Below, piece by piece: positions 7,556-23,883 of a stretch of 64,000 nucleotides of DNA. Numbering within the stretch: position 1 is the first letter of the stretch; each line of letters starts with the position of its first letter. Made by a program: the position numbers and the translations under genes. The notes under the pieces are model-generated. The model searched no databases. It worked only from the letters and a program-made list of their open reading frames with translations, and was not told the origin of the DNA. Source of the DNA: Candidatus Eiseniibacteriota bacterium (GTDB lineage: Bacteria; Eisenbacteria; RBG-16-71-46; JABDJR01); assembly GCA_963762255.1 (NCBI GenBank), contig CAVXKA010000002.1, forward strand, positions 1,056,001-1,120,000. The letters run 5' to 3'.

Positions 7556-8587
7556 CTACTTCTGCGCCAGGGTCGGCTTCAAGGCCCCGTTCATGAATTG
7601 GATTGAGGATTCCAGGAGCCCCTTGACATAGGCCGGGTTGTGCACGCCGTGGCTTCGGTCATCCTCGGCCATGGCCAGGTTCCACACCGCTCCCGCGCTG
7701 TCCACAGAGGTCGTCACCACCTTGGGGCCGCCGTTGGCCCACAATCCAGCCGCCGTCAGCAGCTCCGCCAGTTCCTCCGCCATCGCGTCCACCTCGGTCT
7801 GGACGCCTGCGATGTCGAAGCTCTCGACGTCGCTGTGGCACTTCTCGCAGGCTGCGGTGTTCTCCAGCTCCTCCACGCTTCCATCTTCACCCCGGAGGGA
7901 GCCCACCATGTTGAACGAGTGCCCCCCGATCACATTGCTGCTGGTGACCCGGTAATGGCAGTCCAGGCATCCGTCGGTGACGGCGCTGCGGTGCTTGGTG
8001 ATGGCGTAGTCGTACCCCTCGTACTCGTACCCGTTCGAGCCGATCAAGATGTCGCCCTGGTTGCTGTAGTGCGGGCCCCAGTGGGTGCTGTTGATGTTCG
8101 TCCGGGCCGTGCCCTCGGCACCCACGTAGACGTTGACGTCCCGGCGGGAATGATGGCAGGCCACGCAGAGATTGCCGGCCCCCAGATCGAACGTCACCCC
8201 GTTCAAGAGGGTCGCCGTTTCCGTCCAGCGAAGCCCGAAGTCGCCGTCGGTATGCGGGCTGTGGCAAGTGAAGCAGTGAATCACGGTGGGGTTGGTGCTC
8301 GCCGTGACCGTCTCCCCGTTGACCCTCTGGATGAAGCCTTCGCTAATGTGGCACCCCGCGCAGCCGGCGCTTTCCCCTTCGGCCAGGCGGAGACCGCTGG
8401 CGTGGAAGGAATTCGCCCACTGAGCCTCCGCCGCGATCAGGAACGTGTTCTGGTCGCTATGGCACTCGAAGCAGGTCTGGGCCTCGCCGATCTGCTCCAC
8501 GCGAGTGATTTCGCGGTCGCATGCCGCGAGGGACACGACGAGCAGCACCATGAGCGCCGGTACTGCGACTATCGAGAATCGAGACAT
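7556..8587 (-). CDS. Hexaheme c-type cytochrome lipoprotein (OmcB/c552-like C-terminus)
   Basis: LAAC lipobox; 6 CxxCH (CFECH, CAGCH, CFTCH, CVACH, CLDCH, CEKCH); C-terminal DRSHGVHNPAYVKGLL. Confidence 0.85.
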   Translation of the reverse strand: MSRFSIVAVPALMVLLVVSLAACDREITRVEQIGEAQTCFECHSDQNTFLIAAEAQWANSFHASGLRLAEGESAGCAGCHISEGFIQRVNGETVTASTNPTVIHCFTCHSPHTDGDFGLRWTETATLLNGVTFDLGAGNLCVACHHSRRDVNVYVGAEGTARTNINSTHWGPHYSNQGDILIGSNGYEYEGYDYAITKHRSAVTDGCLDCHYRVTSSNVIGGHSFNMVGSLRGEDGSVEELENTAACEKCHSDVESFDIAGVQTEVDAMAEELAELLTAAGLWANGGPKVVTTSVDSAGAVWNLAMAEDDRSHGVHNPAYVKGLLESSIQFMNGALKPTLAQK

Positions 8588-8618
8588 CTCACCCTCCTTG
8601 TCAGCTTTCGCCTTACGA

Positions 8619-10187
8619 CTACTTCGTGTGCAGGTCGTAAGCTACGTTGAACCAAACCACATTGGCGGTGTAGTAACGATCCAAAAGAATGAAATCATCG
8701 TAGTTATACACGTTGTACTTGATCTCGAAGTGGATATCGTCTTTGACGGTGTACATCCCTTCGAAGAATAGAATCGACTTCTCGATGTTCAGATCGGCGC
8801 CCACATCCATGTACGTGAGGCCGCTCGAGAGGCGGATATTCTTGATCCGCTCCAAGTCCACGCGGCCGGTGACGCTGTGGCTCTTGGCGTCGAAGGTGCC
8901 GTTGAGATCCTCGTACTCGTCGTTGGAGTACGCATAGGTTCCCGTCAATCCACCCCACTTCGGATAGGAGTACCGGGCATGACCGGAAACGGTCCGCCCC
9001 TTGGCGTTGACGTCGATGTCGGGAAAGTCCCGCTCACGAACATGGAACCCCGAGCCCAGAGCGAGACCCTTGACGGGCTTCACCTCGACATCTCCGCGAA
9101 AACGGGAGGTTTCGATGTCCTTGAGAAGGGTGAGTTCCTCCTGGTCCTTCTTCACCCTGCCCGCATACCGGAACCTGGCGGTCAGCAGATCGTCGTAACG
9201 GAAGCTCGTGGCGGCCCGCCAACTGTGGTACCGCGTGAGCGTGATGTCATTGTCGTTGATCTCGTAGCCGTAGCCCGCCGAGATGTCGCCGCGCCGGCAG
9301 AAGGCCGTAACGTCGACGTTGTTCTGGAAGCGATCCGTCTTGAGGCTGGTGGATTGGTTGTCGATTCGCTGGGCCTCGAAGTTGTACTTAAAACGCAACC
9401 GGTCGACCGGGCTGAGCACGCCGGTGTACTGGAAGTTCGCCAGGGTGTAGTCCAGATCCCCGGAGGAGAGCTTGCTCACCCCGTAGGCCGCGCGGAACAG
9501 ATGCGTCGACTTCTTGAAAAGGATGCCGGGGGCGGCGATCCGGGCCGACACGACCTGGCCGGTGCGGTCGGCGGCGGCGTTCCGCTCGTCGTTGAAATCG
9601 GAAACGCGATAGTCGACGGCTGCAACCTTCCCACCCTTGCGGGCCTCCGCCGAGAAGCGACCGGAGGAGAGGGAATTGTCGTACCGCCCACCCAGGACGC
9701 TGTTGGTTCCGCCAGGGTAGGACAGGCGGTCCCCGACCCGGGTCAGATAGTTCAAGGATCCCGTCAGGTTGATCCAGCGAGCCGGGGTCAGATGGGCGCC
9801 CAGGTTCCAGTCCCGGCGATCGGATGTCACGTTCCGCTCCGGGTCGAAGACCTGACGGTGCTGATCGAGGGAGGCGGTCAGCTTGAGCTTGCCCGGACGG
9901 CGGTAGAGCAGATTCGCCTGACGACCGTCGAGATTGATTTCCCGCAGGTCGATCATGAGGTAGCTCTCGGGATTCGGGGTTCCGGCCAGGCGGAGTTGGG
10001 TGATGGAGAATCCCTCGTGGATGTTGTAGGTCTCCTGGACCGTCGACCGATCCCCTTGCTCGTCGAGAAGCACGCCGCCCAACTTCACCGTCCCGTTCCA
10101 CGTCCCCGCCTGAAGCGGAGCCGCCCCCAAGGTGACGACGAGCAGGGCCGGAAGCGTCGCTAGCGTCCTCATTCGCATTCGCACCAT
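8619..10187 (-). CDS. Outer-membrane beta-barrel porin, MtrB/PioB-like
   Basis: Signal peptide, amphipathic Tyr/Gly-rich beta strands, and position directly after a DmsE/MtrA-type decaheme. Confidence 0.75.
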   Translation of the reverse strand: MVRMRMRTLATLPALLVVTLGAAPLQAGTWNGTVKLGGVLLDEQGDRSTVQETYNIHEGFSITQLRLAGTPNPESYLMIDLREINLDGRQANLLYRRPGKLKLTASLDQHRQVFDPERNVTSDRRDWNLGAHLTPARWINLTGSLNYLTRVGDRLSYPGGTNSVLGGRYDNSLSSGRFSAEARKGGKVAAVDYRVSDFNDERNAAADRTGQVVSARIAAPGILFKKSTHLFRAAYGVSKLSSGDLDYTLANFQYTGVLSPVDRLRFKYNFEAQRIDNQSTSLKTDRFQNNVDVTAFCRRGDISAGYGYEINDNDITLTRYHSWRAATSFRYDDLLTARFRYAGRVKKDQEELTLLKDIETSRFRGDVEVKPVKGLALGSGFHVRERDFPDIDVNAKGRTVSGHARYSYPKWGGLTGTYAYSNDEYEDLNGTFDAKSHSVTGRVDLERIKNIRLSSGLTYMDVGADLNIEKSILFFEGMYTVKDDIHFEIKYNVYNYDDFILLDRYYTANVVWFNVAYDLHTK

Positions 10188-10188
10188 C

Positions 10189-11154
10189 CTAGTACTGGTG
10201 ACACCCGACGTTGAAACAGCCTTGATCCTGGAGCGATTCGCTCAGGAAATTCCGGCTGACATAGGAACCGTGAATGTCGGTGTGACAGTCGTTGCAGGCC
10301 AGCTCCGCCCACTGGGTCCCGTGATAGGGATTCATCTTGTGGAGTGGGACGGAGTGGCACTGCGCGCAGAGCTGGAAATTCGGAGCCTCGTAGGGCTGCT
10401 TGAGCATCCTCGGCAGATACGATCCGTGGGGTTCATGGCAGGTCATGCACCCACCCTCCTCCGTGGAGTAGTCCACCGAGGCCTGGTGTTCGTAGGGGAA
10501 CGGCCCCTGGAATTCGCCGTGGCAACTCGTACACGCGTCGTTCATCCCATTCATGGAGAGTTCCCGAGTCGTCTTGTCCAGCGTCAAGTGGCACTCGGAG
10601 CACTTCACGATCCCGTCGTTGACGGGATGCCGCGAAGGCTTGGCGAATTCGCTCGCTACTGCGGTGTGGCACCCCTGGCATAGCTCCACCTCGGCCTCCT
10701 CGAGAAGAGAGGGTTGCTTGCCGGCGTGGACGCTGTGACAGGAACTGCAGTTCACGTCGTTTTCGGCGTGGACGTTTCTCTCCATCATGTTCTGTTGGTG
10801 CGGATTCAGATGGCAGGATGAGCAGATCTCGCCCTCGGCGATCGCGCCCACAGCAGCCGGGTTGGTCATCGGATACTGCTCTGGACTCTCCTCGTAGTGA
10901 CGAGAATCCCCGCGGTGACAATCGGTGCAGGCCGTCAGGACCTCGGTCTTCTCGCCGGATTTCTCGAAGAGCCGGTGGGCAGTCAGCGCGAGTGAGGCGT
11001 CAAGTCCCTCGTGGCACGCGAGACACGCCTCGCTCTCACGAGGATTGTCCGCGGCGGAGAGTTCCGGTTGCGACCCGGAAAGGAGGGCGATGAGGAAGGG
11101 GGCAAGGATCAGGACGGGTACGTAGCGACCGAGATGCTTGCTGTGCGCTTTCAA
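10189..11154 (-). CDS. DmsE/MtrA-family periplasmic decaheme cytochrome c
   Basis: 10 CxxCH, GPFPYEH and CHTDIHGS family motifs, extra terminal CFNVGCH; TTG start after GGAGG. Confidence 0.88.
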   Translation of the reverse strand: MKAHSKHLGRYVPVLILAPFLIALLSGSQPELSAADNPRESEACLACHEGLDASLALTAHRLFEKSGEKTEVLTACTDCHRGDSRHYEESPEQYPMTNPAAVGAIAEGEICSSCHLNPHQQNMMERNVHAENDVNCSSCHSVHAGKQPSLLEEAEVELCQGCHTAVASEFAKPSRHPVNDGIVKCSECHLTLDKTTRELSMNGMNDACTSCHGEFQGPFPYEHQASVDYSTEEGGCMTCHEPHGSYLPRMLKQPYEAPNFQLCAQCHSVPLHKMNPYHGTQWAELACNDCHTDIHGSYVSRNFLSESLQDQGCFNVGCHQY

Positions 11155-11446: not shown

Positions 11447-14400
11447 CTACCGGCCCCCTCTTGGACGCGCTTCCAGGTCGCCGCCCTGATGACACTGCAC
11501 GCAGAGCAACCGCGTCTTGTCGTGGGTCAGAAGCTGCTCGTGGTCCGTGCCGTGCGGGTTGTGGCAGGAGGTGCACGTCAGATCCTGGCCGGTTCGCGGA
11601 TCCTTCTGCGGTCCCGAGTACGGGTGATAGTGCGACTCCGAGGCGTCGTGGCACTGGCCGCAAAGCGTCTGCTGGGGCTCGACCAGGATCCCCGCGTTCC
11701 CGCTGCCATGAGGATCATGGCAGGTGGAGCAGCCCCCGATGTCCGGGTGTTGGTACTTCGCGGCGAACATCTTGCGGTCGTGACAGGTCTGACAGGTCTT
11801 GGTCACGTCGTCGCGCACCAGCATCTCCTTGGTGCGGCCGGCGTGAGGCGAGTGGCAGTTGATGCAGCCCATGCCCGTCGTCACCGCGGCGTGCACGACC
11901 GGCTTCTCGGCGTCCTTCGCGTGACCACCGTGGCAGGTCACGCACAACGCCATCCCCTCCGCCTTGAGCCCTTCCTGCCCGGCGTGGCAGGCCATGCAGT
12001 CCTTATCCGCATAGGGTTTGTGCGAGAAGGCCAGCATGAGCCCCGCGTTCTTGGAACCGTGCGGGTCGTGGCAACTCGTGCACTTGGCCCCCTCGGCGTG
12101 GAACCCGCGGTGCTGTGCCAGGAACTGCGGGGCGCGCGGATCGTGGCAGGACGCGCAGAGTTCGCGCACCGGCGTGGTGAGGAGCCCTTCCTCCCGGCCC
12201 ACATGCGGGTCGTGGCATTGCTTGCACCCGGGATCCGTGACCGGTGCGTGCGTGAACTTCTCTTGGGTCTGCTTGATCACATCGCCGTGACAGTCCCCGC
12301 AGAGTTCAGGGCTCGCCTTGTTGAGAAGGCCGGGCTCGAATCCCTCATGGCCGCCATGGCAGGTGCGGCACTCCCCGGCCCGGGCGGGGGCGTGGACCAG
12401 CTCCGGGTTGGCGGAGCGGAGCTGCTGCGAGAGATCCGTGTGGCAGCGCTCGCACAGCTCCGAGGCTGTCTCGGGGAGAAGCTTCTTCCCCGAAGCGGCG
12501 TGCGGGTTGTGGCAGCCGCTGCAATCCCCCATCTCCACCGGGGTATGCAGAGCTTTGGGCGGTTTGGGCGGCTCGATCCCGCCGTGACAGCCGGCGCAGA
12601 GCTCCGCCTCCGGGGCCACCAGTTCCACCTTCGAGTCGGGCGACGGCGGCTTGTGGCAGGTCTCGCAGGAGCCGGGCCCGAACGGCTCGTGGCGCTCCGC
12701 ACGGAGAAGTCCCTTCTCCGATCCACGATGGGGATCGTGGCACGATAGGCAGTCGGTCTGCTCCACCGGGAAGCTCTCGTGGCTCCGCTTGAAGTCGCGA
12801 TCGGCTGCGTCGTGGCACGTCGTGCAAGGCGTTGCGAGGGCCACTCGTCCGTCGGCGGTGCGCGTCTGGTGCGCGCTGTGGCAGGTGGCGCACTCGCCGT
12901 TCTTGACCGGAGCGTGCACGACACCCGTGGCCAAGGACTCCTTCATCGTGTTGTGGCATGTGAAGCAGAGATCCGCGCCCGCCGCGCGCAGCAGGCTCTT
13001 TCCTTCCGGGATCGCGTGAGGATCGTGGCAAGAGTCACACTCACCCCGGGCGACCGGAGCATGCAGAGTAACGGCGGACGCGCCTCCGGCCGGCTCGCCG
13101 TGGCAGGTCGCGCACAGTTCCGCCTGCGTCGTCATGAGGAGCCCGGGCTCCTTCCCGCTGTGCGGCCGGTGGCAGGACGTGCATGCGTCGGTCTCGAAGG
13201 GAGGATGCTTCTGGGGCATCCGCATCTGGTCGACTTGCTCACGGTGGCACTGCAGGCAGAGCGCCGGCTGCGCCTTCGTTCCGAGCGCCGGCAGATCCGA
13301 CCCGTGAGCGGTGTGGCATGCCGCGCAGGTGCCGTCCAGGAACGGGAAGTGGACGATCGGTTCCTTGCCTTCCTTGGCCAGGCCGTCGTGACAGCTCTCG
13401 CATAGAAGGGCCTCGGGCTGGGCGAGAAGGGCCGTCTCCTCGCTTACATGGGGGGCATGACAGGTCCGGCAGTCCCCTTCCATGGGGGCATGGGGGACCT
13501 TTGCCGCCGCTGCCTTCTCCACCGCGGCGCCATGACAGGAGCGGCAGAGCACCTCCGAGGATTCGGTCAGCATCCCCTTCCCACCGCCGCCGTGCGCCTT
13601 GTGACATGAATCGCAGGCGAGCTCATCGAAAGGCTGGTGCTTGGAGGCCAACTCCGGATTCTGGCGCGGGTCCTCGTGACAGACGAAGCAGAGCTCTTCA
13701 GCGCTTCCCTTGAGCAGGCCCTTGCGGTCGGCCTTGTGAGGATCGTGACAGAAGAGGCAATCCCCTTCCGCCGCCGGCGGGTGGCCGTGGTCCGCCTTGG
13801 CCACATCCCCCACGTCGCTGTGGCAGGTGATGCATAGCTCTTCCTTGGGGGCGGTGAGGACTGACGGATCGTCCGGCAACCCGCTGTGGCAGGCCTGGCA
13901 GTCGGCTTCGGCGTAGGGGGCGTGGACAAATCCCCCTCCCTTGCCCTGTGGCGATCCGTGGGGATCGTGACACGACGAACACAAGAGCGCCCGCCACCTC
14001 CGGTCGAGTATGGAGTTCCGGCAACTCGGAAACGGGACCGTGGCAGCGGGCGCAAAGCTCGGCTTCGGGCGCGATCAAGAGCCCGGGATAATCGGACTGA
14101 TGCGGGGCATGGCAGGTCTCGCACTTGCCCTCGGCAAAGGGGGCGTGTTTTGCGGGGGATGCCTGGGCCTGGGCAAGTCGCGGGTGGCATGCCGCGCAGA
14201 CTTCCGCCGCTGGGGCGGCGAGGAGTCCCTTGCTGTCGGAAGCATGCGCGTCGTGGCACGAGACGCAGGAAACGCCCTTCGTCGAAAGATGGTCGAAGCC
14301 GCCCTCGGCGGGCTTCGGGTCACCGCGCCGGGGTGGCAGAGGTGCAGAGTTCGGGAAGATCCTTCTGCAGGATGAGTTTCTGCGCAAACCCGTGTCGTTT

Positions 14401-14605
14401 GTGGCAACTCTCGCAGTCCTCGGCCTTCACCGGGTCGTGCACGACCTTCTTCTGCGCGTACTCGTCCTGCGCCTTCTGATGGCAGTCGTAGCACCGACGC
14501 CGGGGCTGGGCATCCGAGCGCCCCGACAGCAATGACGCCACCACCCCCATGCCTAGAGCAAGAGCGAGTATCGCCAGTGCGACTCAAACGGATGCGGCCG
14601 CTCAT
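11447..14605 (-). CDS. Giant multiheme cytochrome c (~42 CxxCH, ~1050 aa), split by frameshifts near 14580, 14340 and 13985
   Basis: 35 CxxCH in ORF 11447..13984, 4 in ORF 13698..14387, 2 in ORF 14320..14550 and 1 spanning a frameshift; repeated HxP-x5-CxxCH-xPH-x12-LCxxCH units; N-terminal signal peptide. Confidence 0.85.
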
Positions 14606-14606
14606 C

Positions 14607-15087
14607 TCACTTCTCCTTCTCGGACACCTTGGGAGTCTCAGGCTTCGAAGAAGGCCCCTTGTAGCCGAGCACTTCCTTCAGCTGGAAGGAGTAGAACGAT
14701 TTCGACGAGAAATGGGGCGGAAAGTTCAGAAACGCCCAGGAGCTGTCCACCGCTCCGGTGTCGGCGAGGACGAAGACCTGGACGGCGGGGTTGTTCATCG
14801 CCTCGGAGAGGTTCAGCATCTTTCCGTCGATGATGCGGAAGTCGGTCAGGAACTGCTTGACCGTTCCGCTGAGCGGCGTGTCGCCGAAGATAGAACTTCT
14901 CCCCGATTCGGACGGTGTGATCTTCCTTCCAATCCGGGTAGAGCCGGTTCCCCGCCTGAATCACGAACTTGAGCGTCGTGTCGGTGATGGCCGGCACGGG
15001 CTTGGGTGCGGATTCCTGGGAGTGGGCAGGGTCCGCGGTGCACCAGCACATGAGACCCAGCACACTCGCAACCAGCAGGCTCTTCAA
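14607..15087 (-). CDS. Small exported protein (DUF2155-like), frameshift near 14888
   Basis: Signal peptide in ORF 14638..15087 joins the frame of ORF 14607..14819 (FLTDFRI...NNPAVQV...WAFLNFP). Confidence 0.6.
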
Positions 15088-16347: not shown

Positions 16348-18012
16348 CTAAAAGCTTCTGTCGAGGGTGAAGCCGTAGCTGTCGGCTCCGCGGCCGTAAC
16401 GCCACGGATCCTGGAGCGATCTGCGCGCGGCACGGCGCCATTGGACCTTGGCTCGGAGCTCGCTGGGCAACCAGAAGCCCAGATCGACGCCGCCGATTAT
16501 CTCACCGGTGCGCGAGCTCAACACCAGAGACTCCCTGCGGGACCAGTCCACGGAGAGCGTCGCCTCTTCCGAGATGCGTATGCCCGCGCTCACCGTTCCA
16601 AAGCGCTCCTCGCGGACGAGCCGGCCCGTGCCGGCAAGCCGCCGATACGAAGCAATGAAACTCGACCGGGGAACCGGCTGGTACCCAACCGTGTACTGCC
16701 ACTCCTGATCGGTCTGAGCCTGCCCGTCGAACATGGGCAGCGTGTCCCGGCGCCAGGTGATCTCACAGGTCGCGTTGCTGACGGGGGCGGTGCGAAGCTG
16801 GAGCGATCGTCCCCATTGCGTACCGGTCTGTGAGGCGCCGATCACCGCCCTGGAAGCCCGCAACTCGGCCCGCGCGGCGATCCCCTGGCGAAGTCTGCCG
16901 TCCAGCAGACCGTAGACCGTGTTCAGAGGGATGGAGCCGTTCCGGCTTGCCAGGTCCACCGCGCGTTGAGCGCCGGCCTGGAGGACCAGTCCTCGAATGA
17001 GGTCGCGAGCGAATGTCGCCTGGCCCTGCACATAGTCCGAGACGATGTCTCCTCCCGTCTGGGTCTGCTGCCGGTACTCGCGCAGAACACGAAGGCTCAT
17101 CCCGTCAATCGGCCGGTAGTCGGCGCTTCCGCTCAGGAATCGTTCCGCGCGAGACCTGGAGTCGGGAAGCGCATTGTCCTCGGCCCGGCCCCACTGCACC
17201 GTGCCCGATCCGCCGACCGAGAGCCGACGGCTGGGATTCCAGAAGGAGGACACACCGGTGCGCTGGCTGTACTGCTTGCGGTCGCGGTCCCGGGTCGAGT
17301 ACGTGGAGTAGCTGGCGTCATAGGAGGCTTGAGCGGACACGGCGCGCCAGGCTCTCGAGCCTTGTAGGGCGGCCCGCCAGTCATCCGTGTTGGAGCGAGC
17401 ACCCAAAGAGGAGGAAGACGGCGCGCTCTGAAGGCGCCGATAAGCCAAGGTGCTCCCCACGCCACCCCGGGAATAAGCGAGTTGGCCCCGCCAGTCGTCG
17501 GACCAGGAACGCTCGCTGCGCACACCGCTGGCGGTCCACGTGGGCGCGTCTCGATCCAGTCGATGGTAGTGCGCGCTCAGGCTGGGCGCCCCTGCCGGAG
17601 ACGCATTGAGATCCACTTGGGCCACGCGTTCCCGAACGCCGCCCACACCCGAATCCACGCCCTGCCATGGCACGAACTGGGTCCGAATGCGTACCGTCGA
17701 CTTCTGCGCGTCCGCGTACCAGCGATGCCGGAGAAGGTCACCGTCGCCGGACTCGAGCCCGTACCGGGTGTTGCGGCTGTAGTAGGCAAACGATCCTCGC
17801 AGCGTGACCGCGACGCCGCCCGGGAAATCGCTGCTGCCGCGCAGGTCGAGGTTGCTCCGCCAGGTGTCCTCGGAAATCGTGTCCTCCGTGCGCAGGAAGG
17901 AGGACACCCAGTTCCCCTGCATCGCGTGGACCGACCGGGGAGCCAGGAGCGCCAGAGCGGCCAGGAAGCCGACGCGGCAGCCTGCAATGATCGCCACCCG
18001 GAACACCGTCAA
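16348..18012 (-). CDS. Outer-membrane beta-barrel protein
   Basis: Signal peptide, alternating beta-strand pattern and C-terminal YGFTLDRSF beta-signal. Confidence 0.7.
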   Translation of the reverse strand: MTVFRVAIIAGCRVGFLAALALLAPRSVHAMQGNWVSSFLRTEDTISEDTWRSNLDLRGSSDFPGGVAVTLRGSFAYYSRNTRYGLESGDGDLLRHRWYADAQKSTVRIRTQFVPWQGVDSGVGGVRERVAQVDLNASPAGAPSLSAHYHRLDRDAPTWTASGVRSERSWSDDWRGQLAYSRGGVGSTLAYRRLQSAPSSSSLGARSNTDDWRAALQGSRAWRAVSAQASYDASYSTYSTRDRDRKQYSQRTGVSSFWNPSRRLSVGGSGTVQWGRAEDNALPDSRSRAERFLSGSADYRPIDGMSLRVLREYRQQTQTGGDIVSDYVQGQATFARDLIRGLVLQAGAQRAVDLASRNGSIPLNTVYGLLDGRLRQGIAARAELRASRAVIGASQTGTQWGRSLQLRTAPVSNATCEITWRRDTLPMFDGQAQTDQEWQYTVGYQPVPRSSFIASYRRLAGTGRLVREERFGTVSAGIRISEEATLSVDWSRRESLVLSSRTGEIIGGVDLGFWLPSELRAKVQWRRAARRSLQDPWRYGRGADSYGFTLDRSF

Positions 18013-19139
18013 GGAGGCCCGCCTTCACCCTCGCCTGGGTTGTGCACGTTGCTGCCGGTCGGGCTCGAGTAGTCCCGGCCATGGCAGTCGTAACAGCTCT
18101 TGGCGGAGTTGAGACGGTGCGGACCTTGGTCGGGGAGCGTATTCATCACGATCCCCTCTACGGTCTGGGTGCCTGGGATCCCGCCCGACGGGATGTGGCA
18201 ACCGAGGCAGAACTTCCGGCACTGGGCGGCGTCGGTGAGCGTGCTGGTGAGGCCGCTCCAGTTCGTCCGCTGGTCGCTGATCAGGAAGGCGTTGGGCTGC
18301 ACGCTGTTGTTCCCCTGGGAACCGTGAGGGTTGTGGCAGTCGTAGCAGGGAAGCATGTCGCCCACTTGGATATGCGCGGGCCAGGAGATGGCGACGTCGG
18401 GGTTCCGCCGGATGCGGTGCCCGCCGTGGTCCGGGTTCAGGCCGGCATCGTAGTAGTCCTCGATGAACCGGCTGCCAAGATCCATCCCTGCAGGGCCGTC
18501 GTTGCCGTGGCAGTCGAAGCACAACCTATACTGGTCCGGGGCGCCCATCGAAGCGTGGCCGCCGATACCGCCGTACTGCGCGATCAGGAGGTCACGCGGG
18601 TTCGGGGCATCGTGAGGCGTGTGACAATTCAGACAGAGCCCCTGCCCGGAGGGATCCTGTCGCGGCATGTCCGGATCCAACGCATGAGGCGAGATGTAAT
18701 GCCCCGAGGTGGTCATCGCGGGGTTTGTATAGACGCTCTCGCCGGGCCAACGGCCGCGCAGCTCCACTCCGATCCGCCGCACACCGGCGTTGTTGGCTTC
18801 GAAGTAGCCCGCGTCGGGTTCCGTCTCGGGCAGTCGGTCGGTCTCACCCAAGGGATAGTTCTGGGGCCGGGCGCGGTGGCAGGGACCGTCTCCCTGGTCC
18901 CAGAAGGCGATGCGGTTGACGTTGTCGGTGAAGAGTTCGATGGGAAAGACCGGAGCGTTCGGGGAGTCTTCGTGGGTCGCGTGGCACTGCCGGCACTGGC
19001 CGCGCGTGGAGGGAACCGTAACGAGGCGCTGGACCCCGGTGTTGGGGTCGGCGTGGGGATCGTACGTCGTTTGTGCGGAGATGGTCCAGGCGGCCAGAGT
19101 CAGGACGCCGGTGAGAACCACGCCGGAAACTGGTCTCAC
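18009..19139 (-). CDS. Exported multiheme cytochrome c (6 CxxCH plus one degenerate site)
   Basis: CRQCH, CLNCH, CFDCH, CYDCH, CLGCH, CYDCH and a lone GPCH; GTG start after GGAG. Confidence 0.8.
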   Translation of the reverse strand: MRPVSGVVLTGVLTLAAWTISAQTTYDPHADPNTGVQRLVTVPSTRGQCRQCHATHEDSPNAPVFPIELFTDNVNRIAFWDQGDGPCHRARPQNYPLGETDRLPETEPDAGYFEANNAGVRRIGVELRGRWPGESVYTNPAMTTSGHYISPHALDPDMPRQDPSGQGLCLNCHTPHDAPNPRDLLIAQYGGIGGHASMGAPDQYRLCFDCHGNDGPAGMDLGSRFIEDYYDAGLNPDHGGHRIRRNPDVAISWPAHIQVGDMLPCYDCHNPHGSQGNNSVQPNAFLISDQRTNWSGLTSTLTDAAQCRKFCLGCHIPSGGIPGTQTVEGIVMNTLPDQGPHRLNSAKSCYDCHGRDYSSPTGSNVHNPGEGEGGPP

Positions 19140-22368: not shown

Positions 22369-23883
22369 CTACTGCATGGGAGGGAAGACGCTGTCGTCGC
22401 CGGTATGACAGTCCGTGCACGGCATCTCCGTTTCGGCCCCGCCGATATCCGCCGGGTGCCGGAAAGGCAAGCCGGCGGCTACCAGAGTGTCCCCGATCTC
22501 GTGCACGATGCCCTGCGAGGCGATCGTGTGGCAGAGGTTGCAGTCATCGCTGATCCCCTCGCCATCCGCGGTCCGCAGGTCGGAACCGTGACACCGGAAA
22601 CACCCCGGATAGATGAAATGTCCTCGATTCTCGGGATAGCGGTCCCAGCGGACCCGCATCTCCGGAAACATGTTCTTCCCGTAGATATCCTGAACGGCGG
22701 CGATTGCTTCCGGGGGAAGTGAGACTCCCTGTCCCTCGTAGAAGGCTCCCATCGCCAGCGCGATGGAATCTCGTGCCCCTGCCGTCGTGGCGTAGTTCCG
22801 GGAGAGGGCCTCCACCGCCACGCGCTTGATCCACGGGATGCCAGGATCGAGCCTCCCGGAGGCCATCGCCTCGTTCACCGTCTCCATCGGGGAGCGATAC
22901 CGATGTGAGGGCCGGTTGTGGCAGTCCATGCAGTCGAACGGCCGGACGAGCTTCTCAGCCCGCTTGCGCACCAACACCGAGTCCGGGAGCGGCTCTCCGC
23001 CGCGCGTGTAGACGACTTTCCGGCCGTCCTTGGACCAGGTGACTTGGTCGAAGCCCTGGCGCGACCCATCGGTCGCGACATAGGTCATGTGGTTGGCCTT
23101 GTCGATGTGCCAGTGGATGCCGGTGGGCCTTCCTTCGGGAGAGGCCGAGGTGCCTCCCACCCGGACCAGCAGGTTGATCCGCCATTGCGTGTTCTCGCGG
23201 TCACTCAGGAAATGGTCGCGGATGACCTGAGTGGCGGGGAAGAACTTCTGGGGCCAGTGGCACTCCTCGCACACTTCCTGCGCGGGTCGCAGGTTTTCGA
23301 TGGGGGTGGGGATCGGCCGGGGATAAGTACCCAGGACGGTCTTTACGACCTGTCGGGCGCCGGAGAGCTTGCTCTTCACGTACCAGCCCGCGCCGGGCCC
23401 GATGTGGCAGGCAGCGCATTCCACCTGGGCGTGGGAGGAGTTCATGTAAGCGGTGTACTCAGGGTTCATCACCTGATGGCAGACCTTGCCGCAGAAGGAC
23501 ACCGATTCGGTGTACTGGTAGCCCTGGTAGAGACCGATCGTGGTGATGAGGAGGAAGGTGCATGCTCCAACCAGCGCGGTGACCATGAGGTTGCGGTGGT
23601 GGGCGTTGCCGAGATCGATGATGAGCGGCCGTGTCTTCCCCGATTCGCGGCGCTTCTTCTCGCGCCACATCCCGAATGGGACCAGGAGGAGCCCGAGCAC
23701 CATGATTCCGGGAAAGACGATGAACGTGAAGATCCCCAGATAGGGGTTGGAACCCTTGGCGAAGACGCTGAGCAGGAAGAGGATGATGATGGCGGCCAGG
23801 CCGAAGAGGGCCAGCCCCAACCCGAGCAGGGTGAAGAAGTTGTAGACCAACCCGGGGTAGCGCCCCTTCAGGTTCGTTTCCAT
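22369..23883 (-). CDS. imcH: NapC/NirT-family inner-membrane heptaheme quinol dehydrogenase, ImcH-like
   Basis: Three N-terminal TM helices with NPYLGI; FCGKVCH (CX3CH) plus 6 CxxCH; CHIGPGAGWYVKSKLSG and CHNRPSH motifs. Confidence 0.75.
   Translation of the reverse strand: METNLKGRYPGLVYNFFTLLGLGLALFGLAAIIILFLLSVFAKGSNPYLGIFTFIVFPGIMVLGLLLVPFGMWREKKRRESGKTRPLIIDLGNAHHRNLMVTALVGACTFLLITTIGLYQGYQYTESVSFCGKVCHQVMNPEYTAYMNSSHAQVECAACHIGPGAGWYVKSKLSGARQVVKTVLGTYPRPIPTPIENLRPAQEVCEECHWPQKFFPATQVIRDHFLSDRENTQWRINLLVRVGGTSASPEGRPTGIHWHIDKANHMTYVATDGSRQGFDQVTWSKDGRKVVYTRGGEPLPDSVLVRKRAEKLVRPFDCMDCHNRPSHRYRSPMETVNEAMASGRLDPGIPWIKRVAVEALSRNYATTAGARDSIALAMGAFYEGQGVSLPPEAIAAVQDIYGKNMFPEMRVRWDRYPENRGHFIYPGCFRCHGSDLRTADGEGISDDCNLCHTIASQGIVHEIGDTLVAAGLPFRHPADIGGAETEMPCTDCHTGDDSVFPPMQ

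Follow-up and report, generated by a model that had tools for sequence, protein, structure and literature searches.

The stretch of DNA analysed here (the window) comprises 64,000 nucleotides (nt) from Candidatus Eiseniibacteriota bacterium, whose genome is assembled as 4.14 Mb in 3 contigs. Its minus strand carries, between positions 11447 and 14605, a gene for a very large multiheme cytochrome with 42 CxxCH heme motifs (the 42-heme protein). In the assembly this gene is broken by four small insertions or deletions (indels). The gene, its breaks and its neighbours are listed in Table 1.

Structure of the 42-heme gene

Masking the four frame-breaking indels, that is, removing the extra bases and putting an N for the missing one, gives a read-through of 1051 amino acids (aa) with 42 CxxCH motifs and 0 internal stops, at a spacing of 25 aa per heme. 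A model that had earlier read the DNA letters alone (the original prediction) arrived at a signal peptide and about 1050 aa with 42 motifs upon joining the frames, and the read-through agrees with it. It had counted three frameshifts; breaks are indeed present, but there are four of them, as the site given at about 14340 holds two indels 18 nt apart. Also correct was the statement that an open reading frame (ORF) caller reports 35 hemes and no signal peptide: the longest plain ORF (845 aa) begins with MCSSCHDPH and is devoid of a signal peptide. On its 5′ side, frame 0 (about 14387-13990) contains 4 CxxCH motifs and frame 2 (14550-14320) contains 2, while one additional motif is split across a frame change.

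The breaks were placed by aligning the DNA to an ortholog that is intact in a genome of the same genus (G001, locus L002). Compared with this ortholog, the window has +1 at 14582, -1 at 14339, +2 at 14321 and +1 at 13982, all within the first 625 nt of the gene. Besides these four indels and an in-frame +3 at 14551, the two sequences align free of gaps over 3.16 kb.

The start codon of the gene, ATG at 14605, has an AAGGAG 6-7 nt ahead of it and the stop of the preceding gene 1 nt ahead. It opens a short basic stretch, and a hydrophobic stretch follows after break 1, ending in SDA/Q before the first heme motif. The N-terminus is predicted to be a normal Sec signal without a lipobox. The doubled-CXXCH domain of Pfam (Paired_CXXCH_1) matches three ORF pieces 18, 2 and 1 times, the 18 being in the 845-aa ORF. 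These 21 matches bear out the tandem paired-heme repeats claimed earlier, and the corresponding NCBIfam doubled-CXXCH domain matches the 42-heme protein 22 times. Judged by its sequence, the locus is one gene, encoding a putative Sec-exported soluble cytochrome c of 21 tandem doubled-CXXCH units.

A conserved family of 42-heme cytochromes

A database search with the intact same-genus ortholog (1050 aa) as query listed 120 matches. Exactly 42 CxxCH motifs are found in 69 of the best 70 of these matches and 41 in one, while 31 of the other 50 listed have exactly 26. The 69 database members are 32-39% identical to the same-genus ortholog over 96-100% of its length. Among the matches listed, the sources are Zixibacteria, Latescibacterota, Krumholzibacteria, Gemmatimonadaceae and candidate division GN15, and the product names are limited to ‘cytochrome c3 family protein’ and ‘predicted CXXCH cytochrome family protein’. 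Closer relatives exist as well: the 845-aa ORF shares 79%, 61%, 53% and 37-40% identity with orthologs that have 42 motifs, the 61% identical one coming from a Candidatus Eisenbacteria relative. The read-through protein of the window shares full-length similarity with this family and, with 42 CxxCH motifs in 1051 aa, falls within the family's range of about 990-1100 aa. A single uninterrupted frame with a signal peptide is absent from the gene as assembled, where break 1 splits the signal peptide, and present after masking.

In an alignment of 70 sequences, all 42 motifs form invariant columns, and another 40 or so His residues show little or no variation. The motifs are evidently far beyond chance, because every one of them is invariant in this alignment. 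In the intact same-genus ortholog, all 84 Cys lie within motifs, 90 His are present and successive motifs lie, in regular alternation, about 23 and 25 residues apart. This pattern fits bis-His hemes throughout the protein, and the conserved distal histidines indicate such ligation.

Single genomes of Gemmatimonadaceae, Calditrichaeota, Nitrospiraceae and Desulfobacteraceae, one each, returned no match to the 42-heme query at E <= 1e-20, and a Hydrogenedentota genome returned one partial match. A literature search on ‘42 heme’ wording found nothing relevant. The 42-heme family is common, conserved and unstudied; the window gene is a member of it and does not represent a new kind of system. The novelty implied by the original prediction is lost in this respect, as relatives carry an intact copy of the same protein, which is also widespread in databases. 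In two database matches a peptidyl-prolyl isomerase (PPIase) domain is fused to the cytochrome (P0093, with 26 CxxCH, and P0115, with 23 CxxCH).

Origin of the frame breaks

Eleven related loci, all from the class of the window's genome, were compared. In 8 of the 11 the 42-heme gene is one open frame with 42 motifs, which answers the earlier call for intact homologs, and in 2 it ends at a contig end. The remaining locus (L006, in the 4-contig genome G021) has a single +1 about 600 nt into the gene, elsewhere than the breaks of the window. In G038, a congener of G021, the gene is intact.

Logan contigs of four metagenomes (runs X1-X4) were aligned to the window, with pieces that are 88-97% identical. 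Run X2 covers no break. Every run that spans a break lacks the indel of the window: two of two at 13982, at 14320 and at 14338, and three of three at 14581. The damage extends beyond the cytochrome. The small gene upstream of it is frame-shifted at about 14886-14890, its same-genus ortholog matching in two frames, and the contigs of X1 and X3 have one base fewer at 14886, a fifth one-base difference. At 14551-14558, in the signal-peptide region, lies the in-frame 3-nt difference from the same-genus ortholog. The X1 and X3 contigs show a compensating +1/-1 pair there, 3 nt apart, which may be variation or two further small errors.

The shifted part of the gene has diverged no differently from the rest. 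Identity to the ortholog is 77.7% in the first 625 nt versus 78.4% in the remainder at the nt level, and 76.2 versus 78.8% at the aa level. Synonymous and nonsynonymous codon differences number 61:49 in the shifted part versus 258:179 in the rest (Fisher p = 0.52). After masking of the four indels, no further damage to the gene was found in the read-through.

Frame changes are also found elsewhere in the assembly. As a background, 109 open frames of at least 150 aa, filtered by GC content at third codon positions (GC3), were taken from 233 kb of the same-genus genome; 3 frames with at least 4 heme motifs were dropped, and the 96 that had a match at 55% identity or more were kept. Five of these 96 conserved genes (44,211 aligned residues) change frame in the window's genome, each through one single-base indel (four extra bases, one missing). 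The broken genes lie on contig C3 near 888,125-888,192 and on contig C1 near 1,029,907, 220,064, 1,444,245 and 871,270 (genome G000). They are a sign of indel errors throughout the assembly.

The four breaks in the 42-heme gene are, with good probability, assembly errors and not the marks of a pseudogene. Together with the fifth indel in the upstream gene, they would most likely be local consensus errors of a long-read metagenome assembly, the gene being intact in nature. What the original prediction described as a gene hidden by frameshifts would most likely be an intact gene obscured by such errors. Several observations are harder to accommodate. None of the public runs searched for the window's own sequence holds it (best share 0.18). 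The 5 indels in 905 nt amount to about 150 times the measured genome-wide rate, a uniform rate expecting 0.034 (P = 4e-10). The breaks elsewhere are single and isolated, and none of the window's indels lies in a long homopolymer. A purely random error model fails at such a density over background, so that something local to the region, for example poor consensus over a patch or a mixture of strains, has to be supposed.

These same observations can be turned around to suggest that the indels are real. In that case, the 42-heme gene and the small upstream gene would be a recently inactivated pseudogene in this strain, and no full-length protein would exist. No public run holds over 0.18 of the window's words, the local indel density far exceeds the general rate, and the locus does change between strains, the same-genus relative being without the downstream module that begins with a decaheme cytochrome. 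We nevertheless regard inactivation as unlikely. The burst of five small indels over two genes is read as consensus error, not decay, because it is confined to 0.9 kb, crosses a gene boundary and comes without excess substitutions, stops or a relaxed codon pattern; the other 2.5 kb of the cytochrome gene contain none. Moreover, the covering contigs of close relatives are intact at all sites, and the assembly carries indel errors in conserved genes. That the pieces are separate genes, an option left standing by the original prediction, or are joined by programmed frame changes (recoding) has nothing in its favour beyond the frame changes themselves and can be dismissed almost with certainty: the orthologs carry one uninterrupted frame, the covering contigs are free of the indels, one break falls inside a heme motif, 3 of the 4 pieces have no start carrying a signal peptide, and no break occurs near residue 655, at the natural 26/16 split described below.

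Error in the assembly, the preferred account, has a practical side. Gene callers applied to this locus give a truncated, unexported 35-heme protein, and the same happens in at least one other relative assembled in few contigs. For long-read metagenome bins, heme counts and calls of ‘pseudogene’ need a frameshift-aware check.

Relationship to a 26-heme and 16-heme gene pair

In the phylum to which a Desulfobacteraceae record belongs (G041; Desulfobacterota), 301 genomes were searched as well; 12 of them had strong matches, and six of these loci (L062-L067) were examined. In these, residues 10-650 of the 42-heme protein match a 657-670-aa gene with 26 motifs (E-values from 1e-95 to 1e-124), and residues 664-1039 match an adjacent 396-426-aa gene with 15 or 16 motifs (about 1e-70). 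All six loci carry the two parts as separate genes, each with its own signal peptide, whereas the ortholog is a single 1050-aa frame with one signal peptide. The signal of the 26-heme protein is lipobox-like in two of the six loci (L063 and L067) and plain in the others.

The pair forms part of a larger block. A beta-propeller, a 706-770-aa protein, a 193-203-aa GNA1162-like lipoprotein, a 390-561-aa protein and a PPIase precede the 26/16-heme pair, and an NHL propeller follows it. An OmcS-like hexaheme cytochrome lies upstream of the block in three of the six loci (L062, L064 and L065); the other three stretches have none near the start of the block.

An operon with a 26-heme cytochrome adjoining a 16-heme one, together with a six-bladed propeller and a PPIase, has been described in Geobacter relatives as well as in the partners of archaeal methanotrophs, where the homologs of both cytochromes have signal peptides and, as far as the available text goes, no membrane anchors (PMC5539420). 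OmcS and an eight-gene ‘nanowire secretion’ block have likewise been described (PMC12977616; PMC13194489). GSU2495, of about 70 kDa with 26 hemes, lies inside the eight-gene block GSU2500-2493 (PMC12977616). It is named oscI, and GSU2494 oscJ, both being listed as periplasmic (PMC13194489). The same source summarises Shen et al. 2025 as assigning folding to OscH, secretion to OscE/F/G and morphology to OscD (PMC13194489). The Desulfobacterota pair would correspond to OscI (GSU2495) and OscJ (GSU2494) of this Geobacter osc operon. The 42-heme protein itself is, by colinearity and gene context, the single-chain (fused) form of the 26-heme and 16-heme pair, in a compact relative of the OmcS-companion cluster.

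Similarity to MtrA

The best solved match of the 42-heme protein, and the only clear one, is chain A of 6r2q, the Mtr complex (phmmer E 2.1e-14; Foldseek 2e-6, with a template modelling (TM) score of 0.44 on the target). We take this chain to be MtrA, the ten-heme wire in the Mtr complex of Shewanella, which presumably sits inside a porin and spans about 8 nm (about 80 Å). The DmsE/MtrA decaheme model TIGR03508 scores 407.6 bits against a cut-off of 192.2, a sum over 9 repeated stretches. Membership of the MtrA/DmsE family was rejected despite this score on heme number and size, as the family has ten hemes in about 300-350 aa and the window protein 42 hemes in 1050 aa; its mode of action would be that of a lengthened MtrA.

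For MtrA, a maximal dimension of about 100 Å is given (PMC5566968). An AlphaFold2 model of the 42-heme protein, built from the alignment, has a mean predicted local distance difference test (pLDDT) of 83. Scaled from MtrA, with about 100 Å or about 80 Å for the latter, a fully extended 42-heme chain would measure, as a very rough estimate, 30-40 nm.

Gene neighbourhood

The order of the genes around the 42-heme gene is largely conserved between the window and relatives from other families of the class, with the 42-heme gene as the last of the cluster. The conserved order is an NHL propeller, a six-heme cytochrome (about 350-375 aa), a six- to nine-heme cytochrome, an exported protein (about 540-575 aa), one or two lipoproteins (about 200 aa) and the 42-heme gene.

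Table 1. The 42-heme gene, its breaks and its neighbours, in positions of the window
Feature	Position	Strand	Basis or remark
Decaheme cytochrome, MtrA/DmsE-like, 321 aa, 10 CxxCH	10189..11154	-	directly downstream; TIGR03508 176.5 bits, below 192.2 cut-off
Whole 42-heme cytochrome gene	11447..14605	-	read-through 76-79% aa identical to same-genus ortholog
Longest plain ORF of the 42-heme gene	11447..13984	-	845 aa, TTG start (spurious), 35 CxxCH
Break 4	13982..13983	-	one extra base, frame 0 to frame 1 (main ORF); absent in 2/2 covering runs (X3, X4)
Break 3	14320..14321	-	two extra bases, 18 nt past break 2, frame 1 to frame 0; absent in 2/2 covering runs (X1, X3)
Break 2	14338..14339	-	one base missing inside CxxCH, frame 2 to frame 1; extra C in 2/2 covering runs (X1, X3)
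Break 1	14581..14582	-	one extra base in signal-peptide coding part, frame 1 to frame 2; absent in 3/3 covering runs (X1, X3, X4)
Small upstream gene, signal peptide	14607..15087	-	two ORF pieces, 14638-15087 and 14607-14819; stop overlaps cytochrome start region
GNA1162-like lipoprotein, 206 aa	15092..15712	-	PF05643 20.4 bits, below 25.9 cut-off
Lipoprotein, 200 aa	15718..16320	-	homolog of 193-203-aa lipoprotein in 6/6 Desulfobacterota OmcS-linked blocks
Exported protein, 554 aa, C-terminal Phe; candidate outer-membrane beta-barrel	16348..18012	-	sequence; Atlas look-alikes
Six-heme cytochrome, 409 aa	18009..19238	-	
OmcS-family hexaheme cytochrome, 362 aa	19284..20372	-	profile comparison with OmcS-like proteins
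NHL-repeat beta-propeller, 348 aa	20366..21412	-	Pfam NHL
Membrane-anchored NapC/NirT/NrfH-like multiheme cytochrome, 504 aa, 6 CxxCH	22369..23883	-	N-terminal transmembrane stretches

Several of these neighbours have counterparts in the OmcS-linked blocks. The 206-aa lipoprotein matches the 390-486-aa proteins of those blocks (phmmer E 2e-15 to 3e-18), resembling the two-domain protein of 438-486 aa, and the 200-aa lipoprotein matches their 193-203-aa lipoproteins (E 1.6e-23 to 2.1e-27), the homolog in L062 matching PF05643 at 42.6 bits. The NHL protein of the window is similar to the NHL protein encoded just after the 16-heme gene of each of the six blocks (E 5e-10 to 2e-16). A 7-sequence alignment of the 362-aa hexaheme cytochrome, compared with an alignment of OmcS-like proteins, gives an hhalign probability of 99.8 (E 2.8e-28, 289 columns); the OmcS-like hexaheme of L062 used in this comparison matches OmcS (6ef8_A) over its full length at 8.5e-65. 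The other six-heme neighbour (409 aa) gave no OmcS match in a phmmer search against the PDB. The window cluster shares with the osc cluster an OmcS-family hexaheme, GNA1162-like lipoproteins and an NHL propeller, and from this gene context the link to nanowires made by the original prediction gains support.

No Pfam or NCBIfam match was found for the 554-aa exported protein. Its look-alikes in the Atlas are outer-membrane barrel families, which is a lead only. The NapC/NirT/NrfH-like protein is a candidate quinol dehydrogenase, and electrons of the quinone pool would likely enter the cluster through it.

Other cytochrome genes occur nearby or in relatives. The downstream module at 7556-11154 (minus strand) consists of the 321-aa decaheme cytochrome, a 522-aa exported protein that is possibly a barrel and has no family match, and a 343-aa lipoprotein with 6 hemes. 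A relative of the same family (L027) also has this module, but the same-genus genome lacks it at the corresponding site. In L042, from a relative in a different family, there is an extra 18-heme cytochrome of at least 606 aa at 16773-18593 (plus strand), running off the contig end, and a 9-heme cytochrome; the extra cytochromes lie some 12 kb from its 42-heme gene.

Proposed role and alternatives

Taken as a whole, the locus is best explained, on balance and with some confidence, by a fused periplasmic wire or relay of 42 hemes and MtrA-like build in an OmcS-companion-like cluster, the breaks being errors. We infer the cell location of the protein, its partners, the direction of electron flow and its function as a wire. 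After export and heme attachment, the protein would fold as a MtrA-like linear heme chain. Its electrons would come from cytochromes of the cluster at the inner membrane or in the periplasm, the NapC/NirT-like protein at 22369-23883 being a candidate donor, and would travel from heme to heme towards the lipoprotein/barrel module of the outer membrane and the OmcS-family cytochrome. Meanwhile the protein could also hold up to 42 electrons. In the available texts, ‘wire spanning periplasm’ and ‘capacitor’ are standard readings of such cytochromes, and untested ones (PMC5566968; PMC7399161).

Against this explanation stand a number of observations on the cluster, the models and the published relatives. 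The 362-aa hexaheme is linked to OmcS through profile comparison only, a direct phmmer search of it against the PDB found no OmcS, and its predicted fold (7-sequence alignment) failed, with a mean pLDDT of 31.7. A phmmer comparison of the 554-aa candidate barrel with the 706-770-aa proteins in the OmcS-linked blocks gave no match. A PPIase (rotamase domain), which in L062 is present and in the blocks stands just before the 26-heme gene, was not found in the ORFs of the window that were scanned, from 1.5 to 25 kb. The global shape of the 42-heme model is uncertain (predicted TM score (pTM) 0.54). The Desulfobacterota pair is equated with OscI and OscJ on published heme counts, sizes and gene order only. 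Finally, the available text of an earlier study reports that the 26/16-heme homologs were not expressed during metal respiration in four cultured species and gives their physiological role as not known (PMC5539420).

Instead of conducting within the periplasm, the 42-heme protein might thread through the barrel/lipoprotein module of the outer membrane, or be exported by it, and work mainly outside the cell, like the PCC3 giant cytochromes. Its closest solved relative, 6r2q chain A, belongs to an outer-membrane complex, the candidate barrel and lipoproteins are conserved just upstream, and in the available text of one survey giant cytochromes of 30-53 hemes are predicted to be extracellular or of unknown location, never periplasmic (PMC7399161). 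However, the 26- and 16-heme homologs are listed as periplasmic (PMC13194489), their signal peptides came without membrane anchors in the text of the earlier study (PMC5539420), and neither a lipobox nor a secretion signal other than Sec is visible in the window protein. An extracellular site is improbable on this evidence.

Equally improbable is that the main role of the protein is charge storage, with the hemes acting as a capacitor that buffers electrons without an acceptor, and not directed conduction. The presence of 42 hemes in one soluble chain would suit this role, and a capacitor function has already been proposed in print for proteins of this kind (PMC7399161). Yet the exact number and order of the 42 sites, and the colinearity with the two-protein pair, are conserved across phyla. 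Storage alone does not need a fixed geometry; the conserved sites and the colinearity therefore speak for a defined geometry with fixed ends. Storage and conduction, moreover, do not exclude each other.

A bolder version of the periplasmic wire can be put forward only tentatively, and we doubt it more than we trust it. The fusion would imply that the 26- and 16-heme cytochromes join end to end in function, as a single continuous 42-heme chain of about 30-40 nm. Such a chain could be a fixed cable across the periplasm, connecting an inner-membrane quinol dehydrogenase directly to the foot of an OmcS-type filament where that filament is assembled at the outer membrane, in Eisenbacteria, Zixibacteria, Latescibacterota, Krumholzibacteria and Gemmatimonadota. 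We know of no extracellular electron transfer shown in any of these lineages. The role of the osc 26- and 16-heme cytochromes is not established in the published texts, and the fused form, with sites conserved across several phyla, argues for one unit. As a single and well-defined target, the fused protein lends itself to expression and structural studies of the electron supply to cytochrome filaments, which is a modest step.

Comparison with known systems

PCC3-type giant cytochromes, with 21 to 85 hemes, likewise combine a very high heme count with a low residue-to-heme ratio, repeats and adjoining outer-membrane proteins, and share the reading as a molecular wire across the periplasm or a capacitor; cytochromes with up to 85 hemes are known (PMC5566968; PMC7399161). 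PCC3 differs in having a conserved five-helix inner-membrane protein and very large porins, neither of which is seen in the window, and the two are likened by description, not by homology.

MtrA is close to the 42-heme protein in heme density, with 25.1 residues per heme quoted for MtrA versus 25 here (PMC7399161). It has 10 hemes, in contrast to 42 in the window protein, which the DmsE model matches in 9 stretches and not in one.

The osc pair, comprising OscI/OscJ and its counterparts in SEEP-SRB1 partners, is among the closest known systems. The window cluster is compact relative to the osc block and differs from it in order, with the NHL gene first and no PPIase found among the ORFs scanned, and the OmcS-family hexaheme, GNA1162-like lipoproteins and NHL propeller are the neighbours common to both. 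The pair consists of two genes with two signal peptides, whereas the window encodes one polypeptide with a single signal peptide. Both are of doubled-CXXCH build, and the two are colinear, 26 and 16 hemes making up the 42 of the single chain.

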